Shown piece after piece: positions 3,205 through 42,494 of a stretch of DNA of 42,494 bases. Source of the stretch: a virus. A program made the translations under genes and the position numbers. The notes beneath the pieces are model-generated. The model made no database searches. It was not told where the DNA came from and saw only the letters and a list, made by a program, of their open reading frames with translations. Each line of letters opens with the position of its first letter. Positions within the stretch are counted from its first letter, which is position 1. The stretch lies in IMG/VR virus record IMGVR_UViG_3300045988_020762. The stretch is one strand, 5' to 3'.

Positions 3205-3630
3205 ATGCCTGAATACACTGCCATTGCCGCACAGACCGTAGCGGCAAACCAGAACGTGCTTTTTACGGAAGCACCGATTCCCTGCACTAAGGGCCTTGTG
3301 ACGCACCGCACTGGCTCTGGCCTGTTTAACCTCCGTGGTAACTGCTCCCAGTGCCGTGTCCGCTACAAGGTGGACTTTATTGGCAACATCGCCGTAAGCA
3401 CCGGCGGGACACCCGGTCCCATCTCCGTTGCCATTGCGGTTGACGGTGAGCCGCTCCCGTCCTCCGTTGCGACGGTGACGCCCACGGTTGCGGGGGCATT
3501 TTTTAACGTGGCTGCATCCGAGTACGTTGACGTTACAAAGGGTTGCTGCGCGTCGCTGTCCATCCGCAACGTTAGTGGCGAGGCCATTGACGTGAGCAAC
3601 GCGAACCTTATCATTACCAGAGTTTGCTGA
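3205..3630 (+). CDS. Possible C1q/TNF-like jelly-roll protein resembling BclA C-terminal (exosporium) domains, 141 aa
   Basis: GAAAGGAG RBS. The pattern NQNVLF...GLFNLRG...YKVDFIGNIA...ISVAIAVDGEPLP...LSIRNVSGEAIDVSNANLIITRV parallels BclA-CTD-type sequences. Terminal and internal Cys residues are present. Confidence 0.55.
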   Translation: MPEYTAIAAQTVAANQNVLFTEAPIPCTKGLVTHRTGSGLFNLRGNCSQCRVRYKVDFIGNIAVSTGGTPGPISVAIAVDGEPLPSSVATVTPTVAGAFFNVAASEYVDVTKGCCASLSIRNVSGEAIDVSNANLIITRVC

Positions 3631-4397: not shown

Positions 4398-5738
4398 CTA
4401 ACTTGGCGTTACAAAAAACGCACCGTCATTGTCTGCGTCGATGCGCTGGATTGTGCGTACCCAGAATTCCTTTTTTGCCTGCCGGTCTAAATCAGGATAT
4501 TCCTTCAATTCCCGCCGTAATGTTTCAAGGTCAAATTCTTTTATAGGCTCCGGGTTTATTGCCGCGAGCTGCTGTTTCAATTCCGTATAGTCTTTTTTGT
4601 ATTCTTCGATTTCAATCAAATCCGACAGATACAGGTCTTTCAGTTTTTGCATTTTCCGCTTGATTTGTTCCGCCGTTTTGGGCGGCTTTTTTTCTGCGGT
4701 TTTTGATTTGGAGTAATACTTTTTTGCGATCCCCTCAAATTCCCGCAGAAGGTAATCCTCCAGCACATCTTCCCGGATCCTGAGAATGTGCGGGCAGTCG
4801 GCTGGGTCGAGTGTGTGCGTTCTGCATCGGTAGTACTTGTACACCTGCTTTACAGTCTCCGGCTGCATATTTCTACCGCACTCCCGGCAACGGAGAATTC
4901 CGGTAAACAAATATATTCGATCCGCACTGGCGTTCCGCTGGCTTCGCCGTTCCAAGATTTTCCCAGCAAGGTCGAAGGTTTCTCGATCGACGAGTGCGGG
5001 CAATGCGTTTTCCACGCCGAACGCCTCACCTAAGTACAGGCGGCTTCTCAACGCATCCTTGTATTTGTTGTACGAGCGTTTGATCCCCCACTCCGTTGCC
5101 ATATACCGCCTTAGCGCAAGGATGCTTTGCAGCCGTATAAAGGCTGGGAACATATCTCGCGCTGCAGCTGCGGTTTCTTCATCAATGGCGTAGCGCCGGT
5201 TCTTCACGCAGATTCCGATAGGAGTTTTCCCGTTAGTGGGCTGGCCCTTTGCCCTCTTGCCCTCGTTGATGGCCTTAATGCGCTCCGATGTGCGGTCAGC
5301 TTCGTCCTGCGCTACCGACAACATAATATTGACCTTCAATCGCCCTGATGCAGTCCGCGTTTCGTAGTCCTCTCTAATGGCCTGCCAATCCACATGATTT
5401 TTGTCGAGAACCTCTTGCACGGCGTAGTACCCCGCCACATTCCGAAACCACCTATCCAGCTTGACAAAAAGGATGGTGTCGATTTTCCCGGCGCGGCAAT
5501 CATCAAGCAGGCGCATCAAGGCCGGACGCTTTTTATACGGCTTTCTGGCGCTGATTCCGGCGTCCTCGTAAATGCCCACAACCTCCATGCCGTGTGCGGC
5601 GGCATATGCAATCAGAGCCTCCCGCTGGTCTGCCAGGGACAGGCCGTGCTTCGCCTGTTCTTCGGTCGATACCCTGATGTACAGTGCTACACGGATGCGT
5701 AGATTATTTGGTAGAGTGACCACTATTTTTTGGCACAT
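4398..5738 (-). CDS. Large serine recombinase (phage integrase)
   Basis: N-terminal resolvase domain (ALYIRVSTEEQ...GLSLADQ), recombinase domain and zinc ribbon (CRECGRNM...YYRC). ATG 5738 is preceded by GGAGGGG. Confidence 0.9.
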   Translation of the reverse strand: MCQKIVVTLPNNLRIRVALYIRVSTEEQAKHGLSLADQREALIAYAAAHGMEVVGIYEDAGISARKPYKKRPALMRLLDDCRAGKIDTILFVKLDRWFRNVAGYYAVQEVLDKNHVDWQAIREDYETRTASGRLKVNIMLSVAQDEADRTSERIKAINEGKRAKGQPTNGKTPIGICVKNRRYAIDEETAAAARDMFPAFIRLQSILALRRYMATEWGIKRSYNKYKDALRSRLYLGEAFGVENALPALVDRETFDLAGKILERRSQRNASADRIYLFTGILRCRECGRNMQPETVKQVYKYYRCRTHTLDPADCPHILRIREDVLEDYLLREFEGIAKKYYSKSKTAEKKPPKTAEQIKRKMQKLKDLYLSDLIEIEEYKKDYTELKQQLAAINPEPIKEFDLETLRRELKEYPDLDRQAKKEFWVRTIQRIDADNDGAFFVTPS

Positions 5739-5739
5739 G

Positions 5740-6174
5740 TTATCCCCTCCAAAATCCATAGTTGGCACAATGGATGTCAACCCAAACGCACCAGGCAAAA
5801 AGCCCGATGATCAATAGTGACAAACCGAGTATGATCCACCTGTATAGCTTCACGGAGTGCCAAAGATTGCACAGTTCTGTGTCCATCAGGCCGATGGTCT
5901 GCCGTTTGTTCTCAAGGCGGTGTTCTAGTCCGTCCTTTTCCGCTTGCAACGTTTCCTCACTGGCCGTCAGATGATCTCCGATGCCGTAAAATTCATCCAG
6001 CGACACGCCAAGGACGGCGCATATTGGCCCAACCGTGGAGATATAGGGGGCCTTGGAAGCATGGGTAAAGAAATTGTTGACGGTAGACGGCGGAATCCCC
6101 GATGCTTCAGCTATGTCCTGAATGGTCATACCCAAAGCGTTACGTTTCGCCTTACAAACTTCCTGAATTGTCAT
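5740..6174 (-). CDS. XRE-family HTH protein with C-terminal transmembrane anchor, 144 aa
   Basis: AAGGAGG RBS before ATG 6174. HTH: MTIQDIAEASGIPPSTVNNF. C-terminal hydrophobic segment: WIILGLSLLIIGLFAWCVWV. Its stop abuts the integrase start. Confidence 0.8.
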   Translation of the reverse strand: MTIQEVCKAKRNALGMTIQDIAEASGIPPSTVNNFFTHASKAPYISTVGPICAVLGVSLDEFYGIGDHLTASEETLQAEKDGLEHRLENKRQTIGLMDTELCNLWHSVKLYRWIILGLSLLIIGLFAWCVWVDIHCANYGFWRG

Positions 6175-12725: not shown

Positions 12726-13466
12726 ATGCCGAACAGGATCATCAAGGATAGCATCAGGACGAGCAAAAGCATCAACGCAATGTCGGATTTCCAATTCCGA
12801 TTGTGGACGTACCTGATCACCTATGTTGATGATTATGGGCGCGGCAGCGCAGACCCGGAATTGCTCAAAGGCTTTGTATTCCCCCGCAGAAAAGGTGTGA
12901 CTGAGGGAACGATCAGTAAGACGCTTGCAGAATTGGCGACCATAGGCTCTGTGATCCTCTATGAAGTTGACGGAGAACCGTACCTATGTTTTCCAAACTG
13001 GAGCGAGCACCAGACGGTGAGGAACAAAGTAAGCAAATTCCCGGCACCTGCTGACGGATCGATTACATCTGAAATCAATTGCAATCAATTGCAAGCAGGT
13101 GAAAGCAAATGCGCCCGTAATCCAATCCAGAATCCAGAATCCAGAATCCAGAATCCAGAAGAAGTAGGCGGCGAGCCGCAAACGGCATCCCCGCCGGTGG
13201 TTTCCATCCCCCTCAATGACGGCACTGAATATCCGGTGTCTCAGGAGCAATGCCAGGAATGGGCGGGCGTGTACCCTGCTGTCGACGTGATACAGCAGTT
13301 GCGGGAGATGCGGGAATGGTGCCTGAATAACCCGGCGAAGCGGAAAACGGCGCATGGTGTGCGCGGATTTATCACCCGCTGGCTGGCGAAAGAACAGGAT
13401 CGCGGTGGCCGTAAGGGCGCAAAAGGCCCCGGCAACAAATGCGAGGACGCTTGGGGGTATGTGTGA
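12726..13466 (+). CDS. Phage replisome organizer (DnaD-like N-terminal domain)
   Basis: MPNRIIKDSIRTSKSINAMSDFQFRLWTYLITYVDDYGRGSADPELLKG is typical of the replisome organizer N-terminal domain. Internal DNA iterons are present. Confidence 0.7.
   Translation: MPNRIIKDSIRTSKSINAMSDFQFRLWTYLITYVDDYGRGSADPELLKGFVFPRRKGVTEGTISKTLAELATIGSVILYEVDGEPYLCFPNWSEHQTVRNKVSKFPAPADGSITSEINCNQLQAGESKCARNPIQNPESRIQNPEEVGGEPQTASPPVVSIPLNDGTEYPVSQEQCQEWAGVYPAVDVIQQLREMREWCLNNPAKRKTAHGVRGFITRWLAKEQDRGGRKGAKGPGNKCEDAWGYV
13074..13158. repeat. Iteron cluster inside the organizer gene (candidate origin of replication)
   Basis: atcaattgca x2 (13074-13093). Then aatcca, atccag and four perfect aatccag heptamers (13119-13158). 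Confidence 0.55.
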
Positions 13467-13603
13467 TGATGCGGCTTGTGATTGATATTTACGATGGCGA
13501 GGACGCGCAGGGCACGAAGGAGGCGGCAGCCATGCTGCTGGAGCCTCTGGGCCGCGTCCGGGTGGTGCAAGTCATCATTGACGGAAAGGAAGAAAAACGA
13601 TGA
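13466..13603 (+). CDS. Hypothetical small protein, 45 aa (below ORF-track cutoff)
   Basis: The start overlaps the organizer stop (TGATG) and the stop overlaps the next start (ATGA). MMRLVIDIYDGEDAQGTKEAAAMLLEPLGRVRVVQVIIDGKEEKR. Confidence 0.45.
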   Translation: MMRLVIDIYDGEDAQGTKEAAAMLLEPLGRVRVVQVIIDGKEEKR

Positions 13604-14154
13604 AGATTGATAAACTGTTTAAAGGCTTGAAGCGCATTGCCAGCGGCGACTATGTGTTGGAAGGGGATTTGATCTCCGAGGAAACGATTGAAATTGATCT
13701 GGATGATCGCTTTGTGGTAAAAGGCAGAATTGAATCCAAGAAAAGTGTCATTATTCGCTGTGGCATCGAGGCTGGCTGTGGCATCGAGGCTGGCTGGGGC
13801 ATCAAGGCTGGCTGGGGCATCGAGGCTGGCTGGGGCATCAAGGCTGGCTGTGGTATCGAGGCTGGCTGGGGCATCAAGGCTGGCTATGGTATCAAGGCTG
13901 GCTGTGGCATCGAGGCTGGCTGTGGCATCGAGGCTGGCTGGGGCATCGAGGCTGGCTGGGGCATCGAGGCTGGCTGGGGCATCAAGGCTGGCGCTTTTAT
14001 CAGCGTCAAAAAACGGATTTTTGCAGGGATATCCATTTATCGCACCAGCAAAGATTGTGATAAAACGATCTGCTGCACAGAACTGCGGGATGGAGAGGTC
14101 TGCTATGGAGACCTGATCCTGACAGGAAGCGAGGAAAATCCTGATGAAGATTGA
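13600..14154 (+). CDS. Hexapeptide-repeat protein (13 x [C/W/Y]-G-I-[E/K]-A-G), probable beta-solenoid, 184 aa
   Basis: Translationally coupled on both sides. The central 78 aa are a perfect-period hexapeptide array flanked by 53-aa N- and C-terminal regions. Confidence 0.8.
   Translation: MKIDKLFKGLKRIASGDYVLEGDLISEETIEIDLDDRFVVKGRIESKKSVIIRCGIEAGCGIEAGWGIKAGWGIEAGWGIKAGCGIEAGWGIKAGYGIKAGCGIEAGCGIEAGWGIEAGWGIEAGWGIKAGAFISVKKRIFAGISIYRTSKDCDKTICCTELRDGEVCYGDLILTGSEENPDED
13759..13992. repeat. Tandem repeat, 18 bp x 13, near-identical units
   Basis: Units tgYggYatcRaggctggc counted directly. Five unit variants differ only in the first codon (tgt/tgg/tat), the synonymous third base of the second codon (ggc/ggt) and the first base of the fourth codon (gag/aag). 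Confidence 0.95.
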
Positions 14155-14551
14155 ATTTACGGTCCCCGGTATTCCGGTGGGCAAGGGCCGTCCACGGTTT
14201 ATGAAAAACGGCCACACTTACACCCCGCAGAAAACGCGGGACTACGAGGACAAGGTGGTCCAGTGCTGGAAGCGCCAGAGCGGCAAGGGCTTTGCGGCGG
14301 GTGTGCCGCTCAGGGCCACCGTCACGGCGTTCTTTACGGTACCCAAGAGCACATCGAAGAAGAAGGCCGCTGCGCTGGACGGTACACCACACACCAAGCG
14401 CCCTGACGCTGACAACGTAGCGAAGGCCATCCTGGATGCGCTGAACGGCCACGCCTACAACGATGACAGCGCAATCGAAGCTTTGACGGTGCGAAAGTAC
14501 CAGACAACCGGAGCCTCCCGCGTGGAGGTCGCCATTGAGGAGGCAGAATGA
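14144..14551 (+). CDS. rusA: RusA-family Holliday junction resolvase
   Basis: MKIEFTVPGIPVGKGRPRF...KRPDADNVAKAILDALNGHAYNDDSAI is a canonical RusA pattern. Confidence 0.9.
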   Translation: MKIEFTVPGIPVGKGRPRFMKNGHTYTPQKTRDYEDKVVQCWKRQSGKGFAAGVPLRATVTAFFTVPKSTSKKKAAALDGTPHTKRPDADNVAKAILDALNGHAYNDDSAIEALTVRKYQTTGASRVEVAIEEAE

Positions 14552-14895
14552 TGGATGCTATGGAGTTTTTGAAAACATTGCGCAGAATGTGCAACTGTGA
14601 GTGCTGCAACTGCGAGTTCAAGAAAAGGCTTGGCGTGTTTGAAACCTGCACAGCCTGGAGAAAAACCCACCCGGACGAGGCCGTTGCTATCGTCGAAAAG
14701 TGGGCAAAGGAGCACCCCATCAAAACCCGCCAGAGCGTTTTTCTGGAACAGTTTCCAAATGCGCCAATATATACGAACACACATAACGTTGCTTTAGACC
14801 CATGCCTTGTTGATACAACGTTACGCGGACATTGCCCGACTGGAAGAGGTTGTGATATTTGCCGCCGCGAGTTCTGGATGCAGGAGGTGGAATGA
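14548..14895 (+). CDS. Cys-rich hypothetical protein, paralog A
   Basis: MMDAMEFLKTLRRMC...HPIKTRQSVFLEQFP...CDICRREFWMQEVE. ATGA coupling. Confidence 0.7.
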   Translation: MMDAMEFLKTLRRMCNCECCNCEFKKRLGVFETCTAWRKTHPDEAVAIVEKWAKEHPIKTRQSVFLEQFPNAPIYTNTHNVALDPCLVDTTLRGHCPTGRGCDICRREFWMQEVE

Positions 14896-15254
14896 TGGAT
14901 GCGTTGGAATTTTTAAAAGCAAGAAAACGGATGTGCGAAGCAACGAAATGCGCCAGTTGCAAACTGTGTCATATGCAAAGAGGTTGTTTTATCGCTCCGG
15001 AGAACGAAGAGATTGACGCCTGCGAAGAAGCTATTGCCATTGTAGAGCAGTGGGCCACCGCGCACCCCGTTAAAACCCGCCAGAGCGTATTCCTTGAGCA
15101 ATGGCCAGAGGCGTTTTACAGCGACGGGCTTTTGCAGATCTGTCCTGCCTGCGTGACACGCAGCTTTAGGGGACGCGTCGGCGAATGTGTTGTGGAGCCT
15201 AAGAATTGCCAGAAGTGCAAAAAAGATTTCTGGCTTGCGGAGGTGGAGGAATGA
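14892..15254 (+). CDS. Cys-rich hypothetical protein, paralog B (tandem duplicate of 14548..14895)
   Basis: MMDALEFLKARKRMC...HPVKTRQSVFLEQWP...CQKCKKDFWLAEVEE is colinear with paralog A. Confidence 0.7.
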   Translation: MMDALEFLKARKRMCEATKCASCKLCHMQRGCFIAPENEEIDACEEAIAIVEQWATAHPVKTRQSVFLEQWPEAFYSDGLLQICPACVTRSFRGRVGECVVEPKNCQKCKKDFWLAEVEE

Positions 15255-16960
15255 CCCACTTAGGTGACATAACGAAAATCAATGGGGCGGAAGCGCCCGT
15301 TGTGGACGTGGTGATCGGTGGCAGTCCGTGCCAGGACCTTTCCATTGCCGGAAAACGGGCAGGGCTTTCCGGGGCGCGTTCCGGCCTGTATATGGAGCAA
15401 ATACGGATTATCAAGGAGATGAGAGAACGTGACATGGCAAGCGGGCGAACAGGTGAGTTTGTGCGACCTCGGTATATGGTCTGGGAAAATGTTCCCGGAG
15501 CCTTCTCAAGCAACGGCGGAAAAGACTTCGCAGCCGTCCTCGAAGAAGCAATCCGGGTCGCAGAGCCGGAAGCCCCCGATATTGATGTGCCTGAAAAAGG
15601 TTGGAACACCTGGGGGGGGTACCACGATGAAATGGGAGGACGATGGAGCGTTGCGTGGCGAGTGCTCGACGCGCAACACTGGGGAGTCCCCCAACGTCGC
15701 CGTAGAATCGCGCTTGTCGCAGATTTTGGAGGCGACACCGCATGGGAAATATTGTTTGAGCGGCAAAGCATGTCAGGGTATCCTGCGGAGAGCGGAGCGG
15801 CGGGGGAAGGCCCTGCCGCCGGTGCTGAAATCGGTACTTCTTACGCAGTCAGGATCAGGGGAGGATGCGACGGAGGCGGAAAAGGAGCCTTAGTCCAGAC
15901 GGAGAAAAGCGGGACGATTAAGGCAGGGAATGACCAGACGGTTTTCTGCCTTAAAGGCAACGCCATTGACCGAGACACAGCGCAAAATGGCAAATGGTAT
16001 CAAGAAGATAAGAGTTACACGCTGGATGCAACAGACCGGCACGGCGTATGCGCCGGGTTTAAGCTGGGGAACAGCGAACACGCTCGGAGCATCGGATACG
16101 CCGAGGAACAGGCCCCTACGCTGAACGCAGAGTGCGGGGGGAACAAGCCAGCGGTGATGTGCTTGAACGATCAGGGGGGGGATGTGATGGGCGTGAGCCA
16201 TGATGTGTCCGGGACGCTGAGAGCACAGGAGCATGGGCACCAGCCCTCCATTCTGGATATGAGCCACGCCTGCGACGTCATCCGAGACTGCGGCGAGGTT
16301 GCGCCCAGTCTGCAAGCCCGTATGAGAACCGGCGGCAACCAAATCCCGCTGACGTACCAAATGCAGGGATTTGGCGATTACCGCGAGGGGGACGTTGCAA
16401 GCAGCTGCAAGCAAAGAGACTTCAAGGATAACACAGACCTTGTATGTTCCGTAGACTGCCGAAACTTTACAGAGGGTGGAGAAACAAACGGCACGCTACA
16501 AGCAAAGGAAAGCGGTGGGCAAAGCCTGAACCTGAACAATACGATCCGGCAGAATCGAGTGGTTCGCCGTCTCACCCCGCTGGAATGTGAACGGCTTCAG
16601 GGGTTCCCTGACCACTGGACCGACTTGGGCGAGTGGACGGACAGCAAGGGCAAGCGCCATAAGGACGCGGACAGCCCCCGGTATAAGGCACTGGGCAACT
16701 CCATCGCCCTGCCGCCGTGGAAATGGCTGCTGAAACGGCTGTGCGGTAACTACGAGCGGGACACCACAATGGCGAGTTTGTTCGATGGAATAGGTGGTTT
16801 CCCGCTGATCTGGGAGCAGTTGAACGGACGCGGAACGTGCCTATGGGCCAGCGAGATTGAAGAGTTTCCCATCGCAGTGACCAAACGGCGGTTCGGCACG
16901 GTAGAGAAACCAGGAGACATGGGGCGCTTTTTGTTCCCATACGGAAAGGATGAATTATGA
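15251..16960 (+). CDS. DNA (cytosine-5) methyltransferase with circularly permuted motif order and enlarged TRD region
   Basis: From ATG 15251 (GGAGGTGGAGG RBS): GGSPCQDLS (IV), WENVPG (VI), PQRRRR (VIII), about 300-aa variable region, RRLTPLECERLQGFP (IX), LGNSIALP (X), then MASLFDGIGGFPL...WASEIEEFPIAVTKRRF (I-II) at the C-terminus. Confidence 0.85.
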   Translation: MTHLGDITKINGAEAPVVDVVIGGSPCQDLSIAGKRAGLSGARSGLYMEQIRIIKEMRERDMASGRTGEFVRPRYMVWENVPGAFSSNGGKDFAAVLEEAIRVAEPEAPDIDVPEKGWNTWGGYHDEMGGRWSVAWRVLDAQHWGVPQRRRRIALVADFGGDTAWEILFERQSMSGYPAESGAAGEGPAAGAEIGTSYAVRIRGGCDGGGKGALVQTEKSGTIKAGNDQTVFCLKGNAIDRDTAQNGKWYQEDKSYTLDATDRHGVCAGFKLGNSEHARSIGYAEEQAPTLNAECGGNKPAVMCLNDQGGDVMGVSHDVSGTLRAQEHGHQPSILDMSHACDVIRDCGEVAPSLQARMRTGGNQIPLTYQMQGFGDYREGDVASSCKQRDFKDNTDLVCSVDCRNFTEGGETNGTLQAKESGGQSLNLNNTIRQNRVVRRLTPLECERLQGFPDHWTDLGEWTDSKGKRHKDADSPRYKALGNSIALPPWKWLLKRLCGNYERDTTMASLFDGIGGFPLIWEQLNGRGTCLWASEIEEFPIAVTKRRFGTVEKPGDMGRFLFPYGKDEL

Positions 16961-42318: not shown

Positions 42319-42494
42319 ATGGAAAAAGAACACCGGGAGATCCGGGCGCTGTTGTCATCCATGGCCCCGGCCCGGGCGGCGCAGGCCGTCCGGCTGGTAG
42401 GCTTGCCGCCTGACGAGGAGACGGCGGTGCTGGCGGTGGACGTCCACGGCCAGAGCTGCCTACAGGCGGCGGCGCTGCTCCACGTCAGCGTGGA
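42319..42494 (+). CDS. 5' part of junction-spanning sigma-70 region-4-like HTH gene (continues at 1..138)
   Basis: ATG 42319 (MEKEHREIRALLSSMAPARAAQAVRLVGLPPDEETAVLAVD...). The frame runs off the window end and matches frame 1 at base 1. Confidence 0.55.
   Translation, partial: MEKEHREIRALLSSMAPARAAQAVRLVGLPPDEETAVLAVDVHGQSCLQAAALLHVSV
42418..42494. repeat. Second copy of the 77-nt terminal overlap
   Basis: Identical to 1..77. Confidence 0.97.

Follow-up and report, generated by a model that had tools for sequence, protein, structure and literature searches.

A predicted phage DNA cytosine-5 methyltransferase with a circular permutation between motifs II and III, and its relatives in gut phages and prophages

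A single open reading frame of 569 aa plus stop (15251–16960; all features described here lie on the plus strand) in the viral DNA analysed, a stretch of 42,494 nt called the window in the following, encodes a DNA cytosine-5 methyltransferase (C5-MTase) in which the AdoMet-binding motifs I and II do not open the chain but close it. Judged from its sequence the protein is circularly permuted, and the cut separates motif II from motif III within the Rossmann-like catalytic domain, which is the topology defined as "Type B" in PMC5944983, and by the same kind of evidence this topology defines a large family in gut phages and prophages. With a probability of about 0.8 we expect the gene to encode a functional single-chain enzyme of this type with predicted methyltransferase activity, in which motifs I and II complete the AdoMet pocket and which would serve an anti-restriction role.

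Gene, motif order and break point

The gene is complete and runs in one uninterrupted frame from motif III through motif II, as seen in the ORF listing and the sequence. Its ATG at 15251 overlaps the stop codon of the preceding ORF (ATGA, 15251–15254) and stands 7 nt downstream of a Shine–Dalgarno sequence read from the sequence (GGAGG, 15239–15243), while its stop codon (16958–16960) overlaps the ATG of the next gene. A TTG at 15206 was ruled out as start in favour of this ATG because more than 90 family representatives begin with M-x-H-[LY]-G-D. The PF00145 profile matches the protein in four stretches with 126.7 bits (cut-off 22, E = 1.8e-36) and the TIGR00675 (dcm) profile with 124 bits (cut-off 100.65), and by these curated cut-offs the product is a member of the DNA cytosine-5 methyltransferase family.

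In a phmmer search against the PDB, segments of the protein match M.HhaI in a changed order. Residues 5–61 match M.HhaI 59–115 (motif III GDIT and motif IV PCQ), 133–157 match 146–170 (motif VIII), 434–456 match 267–289 (motif IX) and 508–553 match 15–56 (motif I FxGxGG and motif II), which places the break of the permutation between M.HhaI residues 56 (aa 553) and 59 (aa 5). This comparison had been proposed in an earlier note made from the sequence, and together with both profiles it bears out the claim of that note that the uninterrupted ORF encodes a genuine circularly permuted C5-MTase. The motif order had been given there as IV to X followed by I; the linkage of X to I stands, but motif III (GDITK) and not motif IV comes first and motif II is also C-terminal and comes last. 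Instead of the canonical order from I to X the protein thus reads III-IV-VI-VIII-TRD-IX-X-linker-I-II.

The N-terminal catalytic block (aa 1–169, 15251–15757; pLDDT above 90) aligns to M.HhaI 59–170 and carries motif III (HLGDITK, 15257–15277), motif IV (GGSPCQDLS, 15317–15343, with GGSPCQ at aa 23–28 and the catalytic Cys27), motif VI (WENVPG, 15482–15499, ENV at aa 79–81) and motif VIII (PQRRRR, 15689–15706, QRRRR at aa 148–152). It is followed by a variable region of low pLDDT (aa 170–435, 15758–16555) and a block with motifs IX and X (16556–16708), in which motif IX (RRLTPLECERLQGFP, 16565–16609) and motif X (YKALGNSIA, 16682–16708, G482-N483) are separated by a stretch that includes a 10-aa insertion (WTDSKGKRHK, 16634–16663). 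The spacing between IX and X amounts to 39–40 aa in permuted members as against 29–30 aa in canonical relatives.

Motif X is connected to motif I by the linker LPPWKWLLKRLCGNYERDTTMAS (aa 487–509, 16709–16777), whose length of about 23 aa and whose position match the canonical tail plus N-terminus in a virtual-circular alignment with canonical relatives. The linker would correspond to the ancestral C-terminal tail fused head to tail with the ancestral N-terminus, the start Met of which seems to be retained at 16769–16771. That a Met at nt 16769 opens the C-terminal segment had been stated correctly before; it is residue 507. As this Met is frequently replaced by Leu in relatives, among them Toutatis (...KDKPTLGSLFDGIGG), P0126 and P0187, it is not a separate start, and inspection of the sequence before 16769 revealed no Shine–Dalgarno sequence. 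The C-terminal AdoMet-binding segment itself (16778–16894), which contains the match to M.HhaI 15–56, consists of motif I (LFDGIGGF, 16778–16801, FDGIGG at aa 511–516), helix A, motif II (WASEIEEF, 16844–16867, with Glu535 corresponding to Glu40 of M.HhaI) and helix B ending in VTKRRF. Its AdoMet-site residues FDGIGG and E535, together with D6 from the other end of the chain, align to F18–G22, E40 and D60 of M.HhaI. Both features of Type B are therefore present, as the break falls between II and III and the native C-terminus continues directly into the native N-terminus ahead of motif I.

The protein ends with a lineage-specific tail of 21 aa (GTVEKPGDMGRFLFPYGKDEL, 16895–16957; pLDDT below 50), and in most family members the chain end lies 1–6 residues past RF. 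In tblastn a canonical N-terminus extends through this tail with the same F-to-GD spacing as motif III, a match that is weak and statistically unconvincing. A relic of motif III in this tail is thus poorly supported, with GD at this place in only two of 26 longer tails and most members ending shortly past RF. A tblastn search of the 42,494-nt window found one copy of each motif block and no second copy of motifs I–II; a supply of these motifs in trans by another MTase piece was discarded, there being no such piece in the window.

AlphaFold predicts the C-terminal block with a pLDDT of 91–97 (about 95) as a β-α-β-α unit (strand 507–510, helix 516–525, strand 530–534, helix 538–548). For a compact homologue of 374 aa a pTM of 0.78 was obtained and the C-terminal segment reached a pLDDT of 94–98. 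The top Foldseek matches are M.HhaI, M.HaeIII and M.MpeI, and the TM-scores to M.HhaI of 0.31–0.47 cover the collinear part only, because Foldseek aligns sequentially and the permuted C-terminal segment cannot enter the alignment. Going by the confidence values, the C-terminal segment is predicted to dock against β-4 and motif X. The chain would then start at strand β-3 (motif III), continue through motifs IV–VIII, the multi-module TRD region and IX–X, and pass via the linker into β-1, helix A, β-2 and helix B, so that motifs I and II, now C-terminal, would complete the AdoMet pocket.

A family with a modular variable region

The earlier note had suggested searching protein databases for homologues that start with M-x-HLGD and end with an FDGIGG segment, and this search led to a large gut-phage and prophage family, so that the arrangement is not unique to the window. 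The identical protein was found on 53 contigs from ENA, Logan, JGI and nr, and more than 120 clusters with 73–100% identity are full-length and permuted. Of the 150 best representatives in a library clustered at 50% identity, about 127 place motif II no more than 60 aa from the C-terminus, and a strict filter for full-length Type B proteins leaves 95; the X-to-I junction is also present in hundreds of diverged sequences. In all, the protein has roughly 33,000 homologues. The arrangement occurs in prophages of the cultured strains Acutalibacter sp. 1XD8-33 (L009) and Intestinibacillus massiliensis (L030) as well as in the Faecalibacterium phages Toutatis and Lelie, and in 60 of the 63 IMG/VR relatives that could be classified a single intact ORF extends from motif IV to motif I. 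A tblastn hit matching query residues 1–560 does not imply collinearity, and most of the Lachnospiraceae loci matched in this way turned out to be canonical in order.

Conservation was analysed in 98 family members with 46–93% identity to the window protein; in motifs I, II, IV, VI, VIII, IX and X the key residues are either invariant across this set or conserved to at least 90%. In the N-terminal block P26, C27, Q28, E79 and V81 are invariant and N80, Q148, R149, R150 and R152 at least 90% conserved; in the C-terminal segment the same applies to L510, F511, G513, F517, W532 and E535 (invariant) and to D512, I514, G515, G516, P518, S534 and I536 (at least 90%).

A regular expression search of the variable region revealed six TRD-like modules with [ST][LI]xA cores at aa 222, 257, 290, 322, 353 and 415, spaced by about 31–35 aa with one gap of 62 aa. 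Relatives at 73–100% identity differ by insertions or deletions of whole modules and vary in length from 541 to 723 aa. Each module might represent a separate target-recognition domain, and from the six TL-type modules and the modular indels among relatives the enzyme probably recognises several target sequences. Tandem TRD modules between motifs VIII and IX are known from the multispecific orphan C5-MTases of the Bacillus phages SPR, phi3T, rho11s and H2, described in the literature of the Trautner group, and enzymes of this SPR type protect phage DNA against several host restriction systems. Like them the window enzyme is phage-encoded and may carry several TRD modules between VIII and IX, but they have the canonical order from I to X whereas the window protein is permuted.

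The element carrying the gene, about 42.4 kb long, is a complete temperate phage with a 77-nt terminal overlap, encoding a serine integrase, a Sak-like annealing protein, a RecE-like exonuclease, NinB, a replication initiator, RusA, a terminase and a major head protein. The C5-MTase gene is located in the early region together with the recombination, replication and RusA genes. None of the scanned flanking ORFs matched a restriction-endonuclease family, and four of them had no match to any family. Most likely the protein acts as an orphan phage MTase, by which the phage would methylate its own DNA at several targets in order to escape host restriction.

Known permutations and alternative readings

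C5-MTases are a textbook example of a uniform motif order, and the only known natural permutation in prokaryotes, Type H, keeps both structural domains intact, which had been read as a constraint on the possible evolutionary paths. Type H (M.BssHII, M.Alw26I, M2.Eco31I, M.Esp3I, M2.BsaI and others in REBASE) also joins X to I, but its N-terminus lies in the variable region and IX–X precede I–VIII, whereas the window protein is cut between II and III and has motif III first; within its clade the Type H order is confined to relatives such as P0211 and P0126. Type B had been engineered in M.MpeI and M.SssI, where it gave the most active permutant (PMC5944983, 2018). In that work it was stated not to occur naturally, a REBASE search having found only variable-region (Type H) permutants, and its absence from nature puzzled the authors since the II/III permutation was the best tolerated of all; a weakened AdoMet binding was put forward as a possible reason. 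We found no earlier description of a natural Type B enzyme in our literature searches or in the CIRPIN permutation survey. The idea of a new permutation class, put forward in the earlier note, thus holds insofar as the order differs from M.BssHII and was not known from nature according to the literature, but the topology as such had already been built in the laboratory.

The engineered enzymes have the same topology as the window protein, with the N-terminus between II and III and X followed by I–II, but they are CG-specific, derive from mycoplasma and spiroplasma and contain a single TRD, whereas the window protein is natural, phage-encoded and multi-module. Its identity to M.MpeI over the aligned core is about 23%, and the region between II and III, a long non-conserved insert in M.MpeI, is a short loop with a conserved Met at the cut in the clade of the window protein. 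In the earlier note M.BssHII was the only C5 permutation named, which overlooked plant DRM2, a natural C5-MTase with motifs VI–X before I–V. DRM2 is eukaryotic and has another break point, its motif IV lying at chain positions ~304–348 of 352 in a PDB alignment, and the window protein does not share its order. It also differs from the split C5-MTases M.AquI and M.EcoHK31I, in which the catalytic domain is distributed over two polypeptides, by being encoded in a single ORF.

An unusual architecture on a metagenomic contig could be an assembly chimera or the product of two adjacent genes fused by a sequencing error that erased a stop codon, and the prior that such architectures are sometimes artefacts is all that speaks for it. 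The same junction is present on all 53 contigs with the identical protein, in genomes of cultured strains, in isolated phages and in the hundreds of diverged sequences, and the exchange of the junction Met for Leu in many members shows that the C-terminal segment is not separately initiated, so that this reading is effectively refuted. A biological alternative is that the permuted chain is unable to complete its own fold and acts as a domain-swapped dimer or oligomer, motifs I–II of one chain completing III–X of another. Such docking of a separate segment has a precedent in M.MpeI, whose fragments [1–61] and [62–395] complement each other in trans (PMC5944983). However, the N- and C-termini of C5-MTases are close together, their direct fusion without linker is tolerated in the engineered enzymes (PMC5944983), the natural linker equals in length the canonical tail and N-terminus taken together, and the compact homologue is predicted as a confident monomer; we therefore regard a swapped assembly as improbable.

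The gene could also be a decaying or inactive remnant of a tandem duplication with vestigial motifs I–II, a view which would be favoured by the frameshifted copies of Toutatis and Lelie and of about 13 prophage loci, by the four extra nucleotides (TAGA) that 14 relatives have at the codon of the catalytic Cys, and by two G8 runs in the gene itself. Against it stand the invariance of motif I and II residues across about 100 clusters of only 46–70% identity, the intact gene in 60 of 63 viral relatives, the intact window copy with its good ribosome-binding site and the lack of an alternative source of motifs I–II in the phage, which make a remnant similarly improbable. We thus prefer the functional single-chain enzyme. 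On the sequences collected here, a permutation between motifs II and III occurs in nature, and widely so, in phages and prophages of gut Clostridia, which would remove the supposed constraint on permutation. The hundreds of natural Type B sequences offer a test of the weakened-AdoMet-affinity idea, and Type B, its Type H sister and the canonical forms together allow the duplication-and-truncation model to be tested on natural proteins. In annotation pipelines, and in screens of motif order in the style of REBASE, Type B proteins currently pass as generic or split methyltransferases.

Origin of the permutation and frameshifted copies

Relatives with canonical order are found in Clostridia prophages (P0229, P0258 and P0216, as well as loci in Anaerotruncus colihominis, Sellimonas catena and Chakrabartyella piscis). 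They are 50–59% identical in the core and have TRD module types in common with the window protein, but their motifs I–II are N-terminal, they are without the 10-aa insertion between IX and X, and after motif X they read IPCVDFV instead of the LPxWxW of permuted members. Across the break canonical relatives read RFPxM|xHLGDITK with the Met exactly at the cut point. The expectation that the break falls exactly where related enzymes join VTK.RFP to M.HLGD.TK was confirmed, since P0229, P0216, P0258 and many prophage loci read VTKxRFPxMxHLGDITK. As a minor sister group the clade further includes BssHII-like (Type H) forms (P0211, P0126 and about 15 clusters), which have the X-to-I linker and the 10-aa insertion between IX and X in common with Type B members. 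In a neighbour-joining tree of the de-permuted cores the canonical forms are located outside, and Type B and Type H group together; as the H members are dispersed over short internal branches, the tree is compatible with either direction between these two.

The permutation may have originated when two gene copies were fused in frame, head to tail, after which the first copy would have lost I–II and the second copy III–X; the new start would be a Met that canonical relatives already have in the interior of their chain. At somewhat less than even odds, we propose that the clade is a record of permutation by duplication, in which one X-to-I fusion was trimmed in two ways, and that some lineages may gate the expression of the enzyme. 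Type B, cut inside the catalytic domain, would be the dominant product and the BssHII-like Type H the minor one, with the canonical ancestors still circulating beside them. Gating would proceed via homopolymer frameshifts and possibly via a programmed +1 frameshift directly after the catalytic Cys codon.

Two G8 homopolymers are present in the gene, one coding for W-G-G between motifs VI and VIII (15612–15619) and one for Q-G-G in the variable region (16174–16181). GGG accounts for 30% of the Gly codons, and GGG-GGG is used in three of the 14 GG dipeptides where about 1.3 are expected; as this enrichment is not significant, selection for poly-G tracts was dismissed. The Toutatis gene, annotated as two CDS, leaves the frame at the site homologous to the first tract. 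All out-of-frame prophage loci have G/C runs of 8–11, and the loci without such runs are all in frame, as might be expected of slipped-strand switches in phase-variable methyltransferases; however, a change of +1 G at the first tract was observed in only one of 39 close relatives. With the gene split by a frameshift in Toutatis and Lelie and several prophage copies out of frame, it is dispensable or switchable in some lineages.

Motif order and predicted fold of the methyltransferase

As claimed from the sequence alone in the earlier note, the cytosine-5 methyltransferase (C5-MTase) is encoded by one uninterrupted ORF (15251-16960, + strand; 569 aa counted from the ATG). A GGAGG (15239-15243, +) precedes the ATG, which overlaps the stop codon of the upstream ORF (ATGA), and the MTase stop codon in turn overlaps the ATG with which the following ORF begins. 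The protein exceeds the curated cut-offs of Pfam PF00145 (four stretches) and TIGR00675 (three stretches). In a phmmer search of PDB sequences M.HhaI matched in four separate, non-collinear pieces: residues 5-61 of the window protein correspond to HhaI 59-115 (motif III GDIT and motif IV PCQ), 133-157 to HhaI 146-170 (motif VIII), 434-456 to HhaI 267-289 (motif IX) and 508-553 to HhaI 15-56 (motif I FxGxGG and the acidic residue of motif II). The motif order is thus III-IV-VI-VIII-variable region-IX-X-linker-I-II, with the break at HhaI residues 57-58 in the loop preceding strand beta-3, and we refer to this arrangement (III...X-I-II) as Type B. A six-frame search of the 42.5-kb window found each motif block once and no second copy of any. 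The permutation seen in the earlier note is therefore confirmed and its interpretation supported apart from two details, as the HhaI alignment places motif III (GDITK) and not motif IV at the start, and motif II besides motif I in the C-terminal piece.

Across 98 aligned Type B sequences, whose identity to the window protein is 46-93%, the residues invariant or at least 90% conserved include G24, P26, C27 and Q28 of motif IV, E79, N80 and V81 of motif VI, Q148, R149, R150 and R152 of motif VIII, R439-P443 and E445 of motif IX, G482 and N483 of motif X, and L510, F511, D512, G513, I514, G515, G516, F517, W532, S534, E535 and I536 of the C-terminal segment. With the same alignment AlphaFold2 gave a block-mean pLDDT above 85 (mostly above 90) over most of residues 1-170 except for the loop at ~21-50, and a pLDDT of 91-97 over residues 441-550, with low confidence in the variable region and over the 21 C-terminal residues. 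The C-terminal piece is predicted as strand 507-510, helix 516-525, strand 530-534 and helix 538-548, which together make up the beta-1/alpha-A/beta-2/alpha-B unit in the half of the fold that binds AdoMet, and the compact 374-aa family member P0183 (pTM 0.78) reached a pLDDT of 94-98 over the corresponding segment. The best Foldseek matches in the PDB were M.HhaI, M.HaeIII and M.MpeI; these alignments are sequential, so docking lies outside their reach. The structure prediction proposed in the earlier note thus yielded the expected unit with confidence, and the confidence values, together with what has been published on engineered equivalents, lead us to infer that this segment probably docks into the fold. 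Residue conservation and the model both suggest that the enzyme is probably functional.

Occurrence in phages and prophages

Misassembly, which according to the earlier note would have undone the claim, is opposed by the recurrence of the permuted order on many contigs, in prophages of cultured strains and in phages. The identical 569-aa protein is carried by 53 contigs of up to 78 kb (ENA, Logan, nr), its name in nr being 'MAG TPA: Cytosine specific methyltransferase [Caudoviricetes sp.]'. After clustering at 90% identity all of the best 120 clusters were 73-100% identical to the query, and the eight inspected in full, including two at 61-62% query coverage, all had the same N- and C-termini. 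A library clustered at 50% identity contained 33,541 matching proteins. Homologues starting with M-x-HLGD and ending with an FDGIGG segment, for which a search had been suggested, were indeed found: 95 of the best 150 representatives passed a strict full-length filter (start M-x-H-[LY]-G-D, PCQ near residue 24, FDGIGG ~40 residues from the end), and in ~127 of these 150 motif II lies at most 60 residues from the C-terminus. In 60/63 classifiable IMG/VR relatives a single intact ORF spans motif IV through motif I. When one genome per species was scanned, prophages with an intact Type B gene turned up in Oscillospiraceae, Ruminococcaceae and Acutalibacteraceae, among them those of Acutalibacter sp. 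1XD8-33 (L009) and Intestinibacillus massiliensis (L030), both cultured strains. Using tblastn the permuted order was also detected in the Faecalibacterium phages FP_Toutatis, whose X-I junction reads ...KDKPTLGSLFDGIGG and has no Met, and Lelie. The PHROG family phrog_16427 aligns collinearly with residues 430-550, through IX-X-I-II, so phage databases have already contained the arrangement without its being recognised. In FP_Toutatis (NC_047915; locus L001, 3001-4412) the permuted MTase is annotated as two 'DNA methyltransferase' CDS (gp14 and gp15) because of a frameshift in a poly-G tract, and Lelie shows the same three-piece match as Toutatis.

Relation to canonical, BssHII-like and engineered enzymes

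Relatives with canonical order were also recovered (P0216, P0228, P0229, P0230 and P0258), and many more reside in prophages of Lachnospiraceae and other Clostridia. Their break region reads ...VTKxRFPxMxH[LV]GDITK..., and the permuted ORF opens exactly at its conserved internal Met, just where the break had been placed in the first reading (RFP/M-x-HLGD), with most Type B proteins stopping 1-6 residues past RF. In a 'virtual circle' alignment the linker between motifs X and I, LLKRLCGNYERDTT-MASLFDGIGG in the window protein, matches a canonical C-terminal tail joined directly to a canonical N-terminus with the old start Met kept, as expected if two gene copies had been fused head to tail in frame. 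Five representatives (P0211, P0126, P0176, P0268 and P0270) instead show the order TRD-IX-X-linker-I-II-III-...-VIII, which is the BssHII-like Type H with its break in the variable region. P0211 (L002, 1707-2876) and P0126 (L003, 1637-3259; on three contigs) are complete ORFs inside their contigs, and a search with P0211 as query gave ~15 clusters at 90% identity that have this order. P0126 has TRD modules at both ends, and the minor BssHII-like sister group also lists P0271-P0283. Types B and H have in common the X-to-I linker, a 10-aa IX-X insertion (WxDSKGKxHK; IX-X spacing 39-40 aa versus 29-30 aa in canonical proteins), LPxWxW following motif X and 2 extra aa inserted in helix A, and the canonical proteins fall outside the B+H group in a rough NJ tree. 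One fusion event followed by different truncations, in either order, could have led to both types, similar to the duplication model of permutation, which is cited in PMC5944983 as tested experimentally on M.HaeIII.

Of 21 circular permutants constructed from M.MpeI and M.SssI (PMC5944983, PLoS One 2018) the active ones represent ten types, and those of 'Class B' (cp62M.MpeI and cp58M.SssI), whose chains now begin between motifs II and III, were by far the most active, cp62M.MpeI being similar to the wild type; the native termini were fused directly and needed no linker. In the same work a REBASE screen for motif X before motif I retrieved 27 proteins, each with its permutation point in the variable region (Type H; M.BssHII, M.Alw26I, M2.Eco31I, M.Esp3I, M2.BsaI and others), weaker AdoMet binding was offered as a possible reason for the lack of natural Type B enzymes, and it was concluded that nature favours pathways keeping the two domains intact (PMC5944983). 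The window protein is a natural Type B permutant with exactly the topology of these two laboratory-made enzymes; the protein family, circular permutation in C5-MTases and, in engineered form, the topology itself are all known, and it is not categorically new. A third known rearrangement is that of plant DRM2 with VI-X before I-V, and in the PDB matches its motif IV is located at chain positions ~304-348 of 352. A later description of natural Type B enzymes was not found in open-access literature text, REBASE being outside the scope of this search. A natural class explicitly reported absent by the specialist literature is abundant, and the sister topologies alongside it bear on how permutations arise.

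Sequence variation and phage context

The only G/C homopolymers of at least 7 nt in the window are two G8 runs (15612-15619 and 16174-16181), both within the MTase gene. Phase variation of the MTase via these tracts is possible. Toutatis has a G9 at the first site (L001 ~3311-3319) and loses the frame exactly there, G/C runs of 8-11 occur in 13/13 out-of-frame Type B loci (Toutatis and the prophage loci L013, L018, L020, L027, L034, L037, L040-L042, L049, L059 and L069), and loci without such runs are all in frame. Against phase variation count the +1 G at the first tract in just one of 39 close relatives and the codon usage of the MTase gene, in which no selection for poly-G runs is visible.

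Fourteen relatives from two diverged lineages carry a 4-nt TAGA insertion immediately downstream of the catalytic Cys codon (CCT TGT TAGA CAG GAT; L090 (1576-1590), L006, L091, L092, L094, L096, L100, L104, L106, L117, L126, L147, L159 and L165). The upstream 27-codon motif III ORF is intact in these alleles, and at ten of the loci a +1-frame ORF of 471-640 aa runs through motifs X, I and II. These alleles may use a programmed +1 frameshift at UGU-UAG-A or give a Cys-less protein, or they may represent a null allele that is spreading. At the same Cys codon position the Type H protein P0270 has an intein (residues ~167-325, GGSP[CFPAGT...VVHN]CQDLS) with precomputed Pfam matches to PF14890 and PF13403.

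The variable region (265 aa) contains six [ST][LI]xA-centred modules (aa 222-415) with the cores TIKA, TLDA, TLNA, TLRA, SLQA and TLQA, which we take to resemble the conserved Thr-Leu core of C5-MTase TRDs, e.g. T250-L251 of M.HhaI. Because of these TRD-like cores, and since whole modules are gained and lost among close relatives, we think that the enzyme may be multispecific like those of the Bacillus phages SPR and phi3T.

The first and last 77 nt of the window are identical (1-77 and 42418-42494), which makes it a complete circular assembly of ~42.4 kb and together with a serine integrase gene (4398-5798, -) indicates a temperate phage. It also encodes a Sak-like annealing protein, a RecE-like exonuclease, NinB, a replication initiator, RusA, a terminase and a major head protein. 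The MTase gene is preceded by RusA and then directly by two paralogous Cys-rich small ORFs (14548-14895 and 14889-15254; 40% identical, E=4e-25), neither with a Pfam or PHROG match and the second translationally coupled to the MTase start, and is followed by a DUF551 protein gene. None of the flanking ORFs scanned matched a restriction-endonuclease family, four of them having no family match at all, and the setting is the usual one of an orphan phage methyltransferase. The ORF 13600-14154 contains 13.1 copies of an 18-nt unit (91% matches; 13757-13992), which encode a hexapeptide repeat (GIEAGW/GIKAGW) in a protein without family match. The replication-initiator gene (12726-13466) contains a perfect 7-nt repeat (AATCCAG, 5.3 copies, 13124-13160), possibly the iteron array of an origin.
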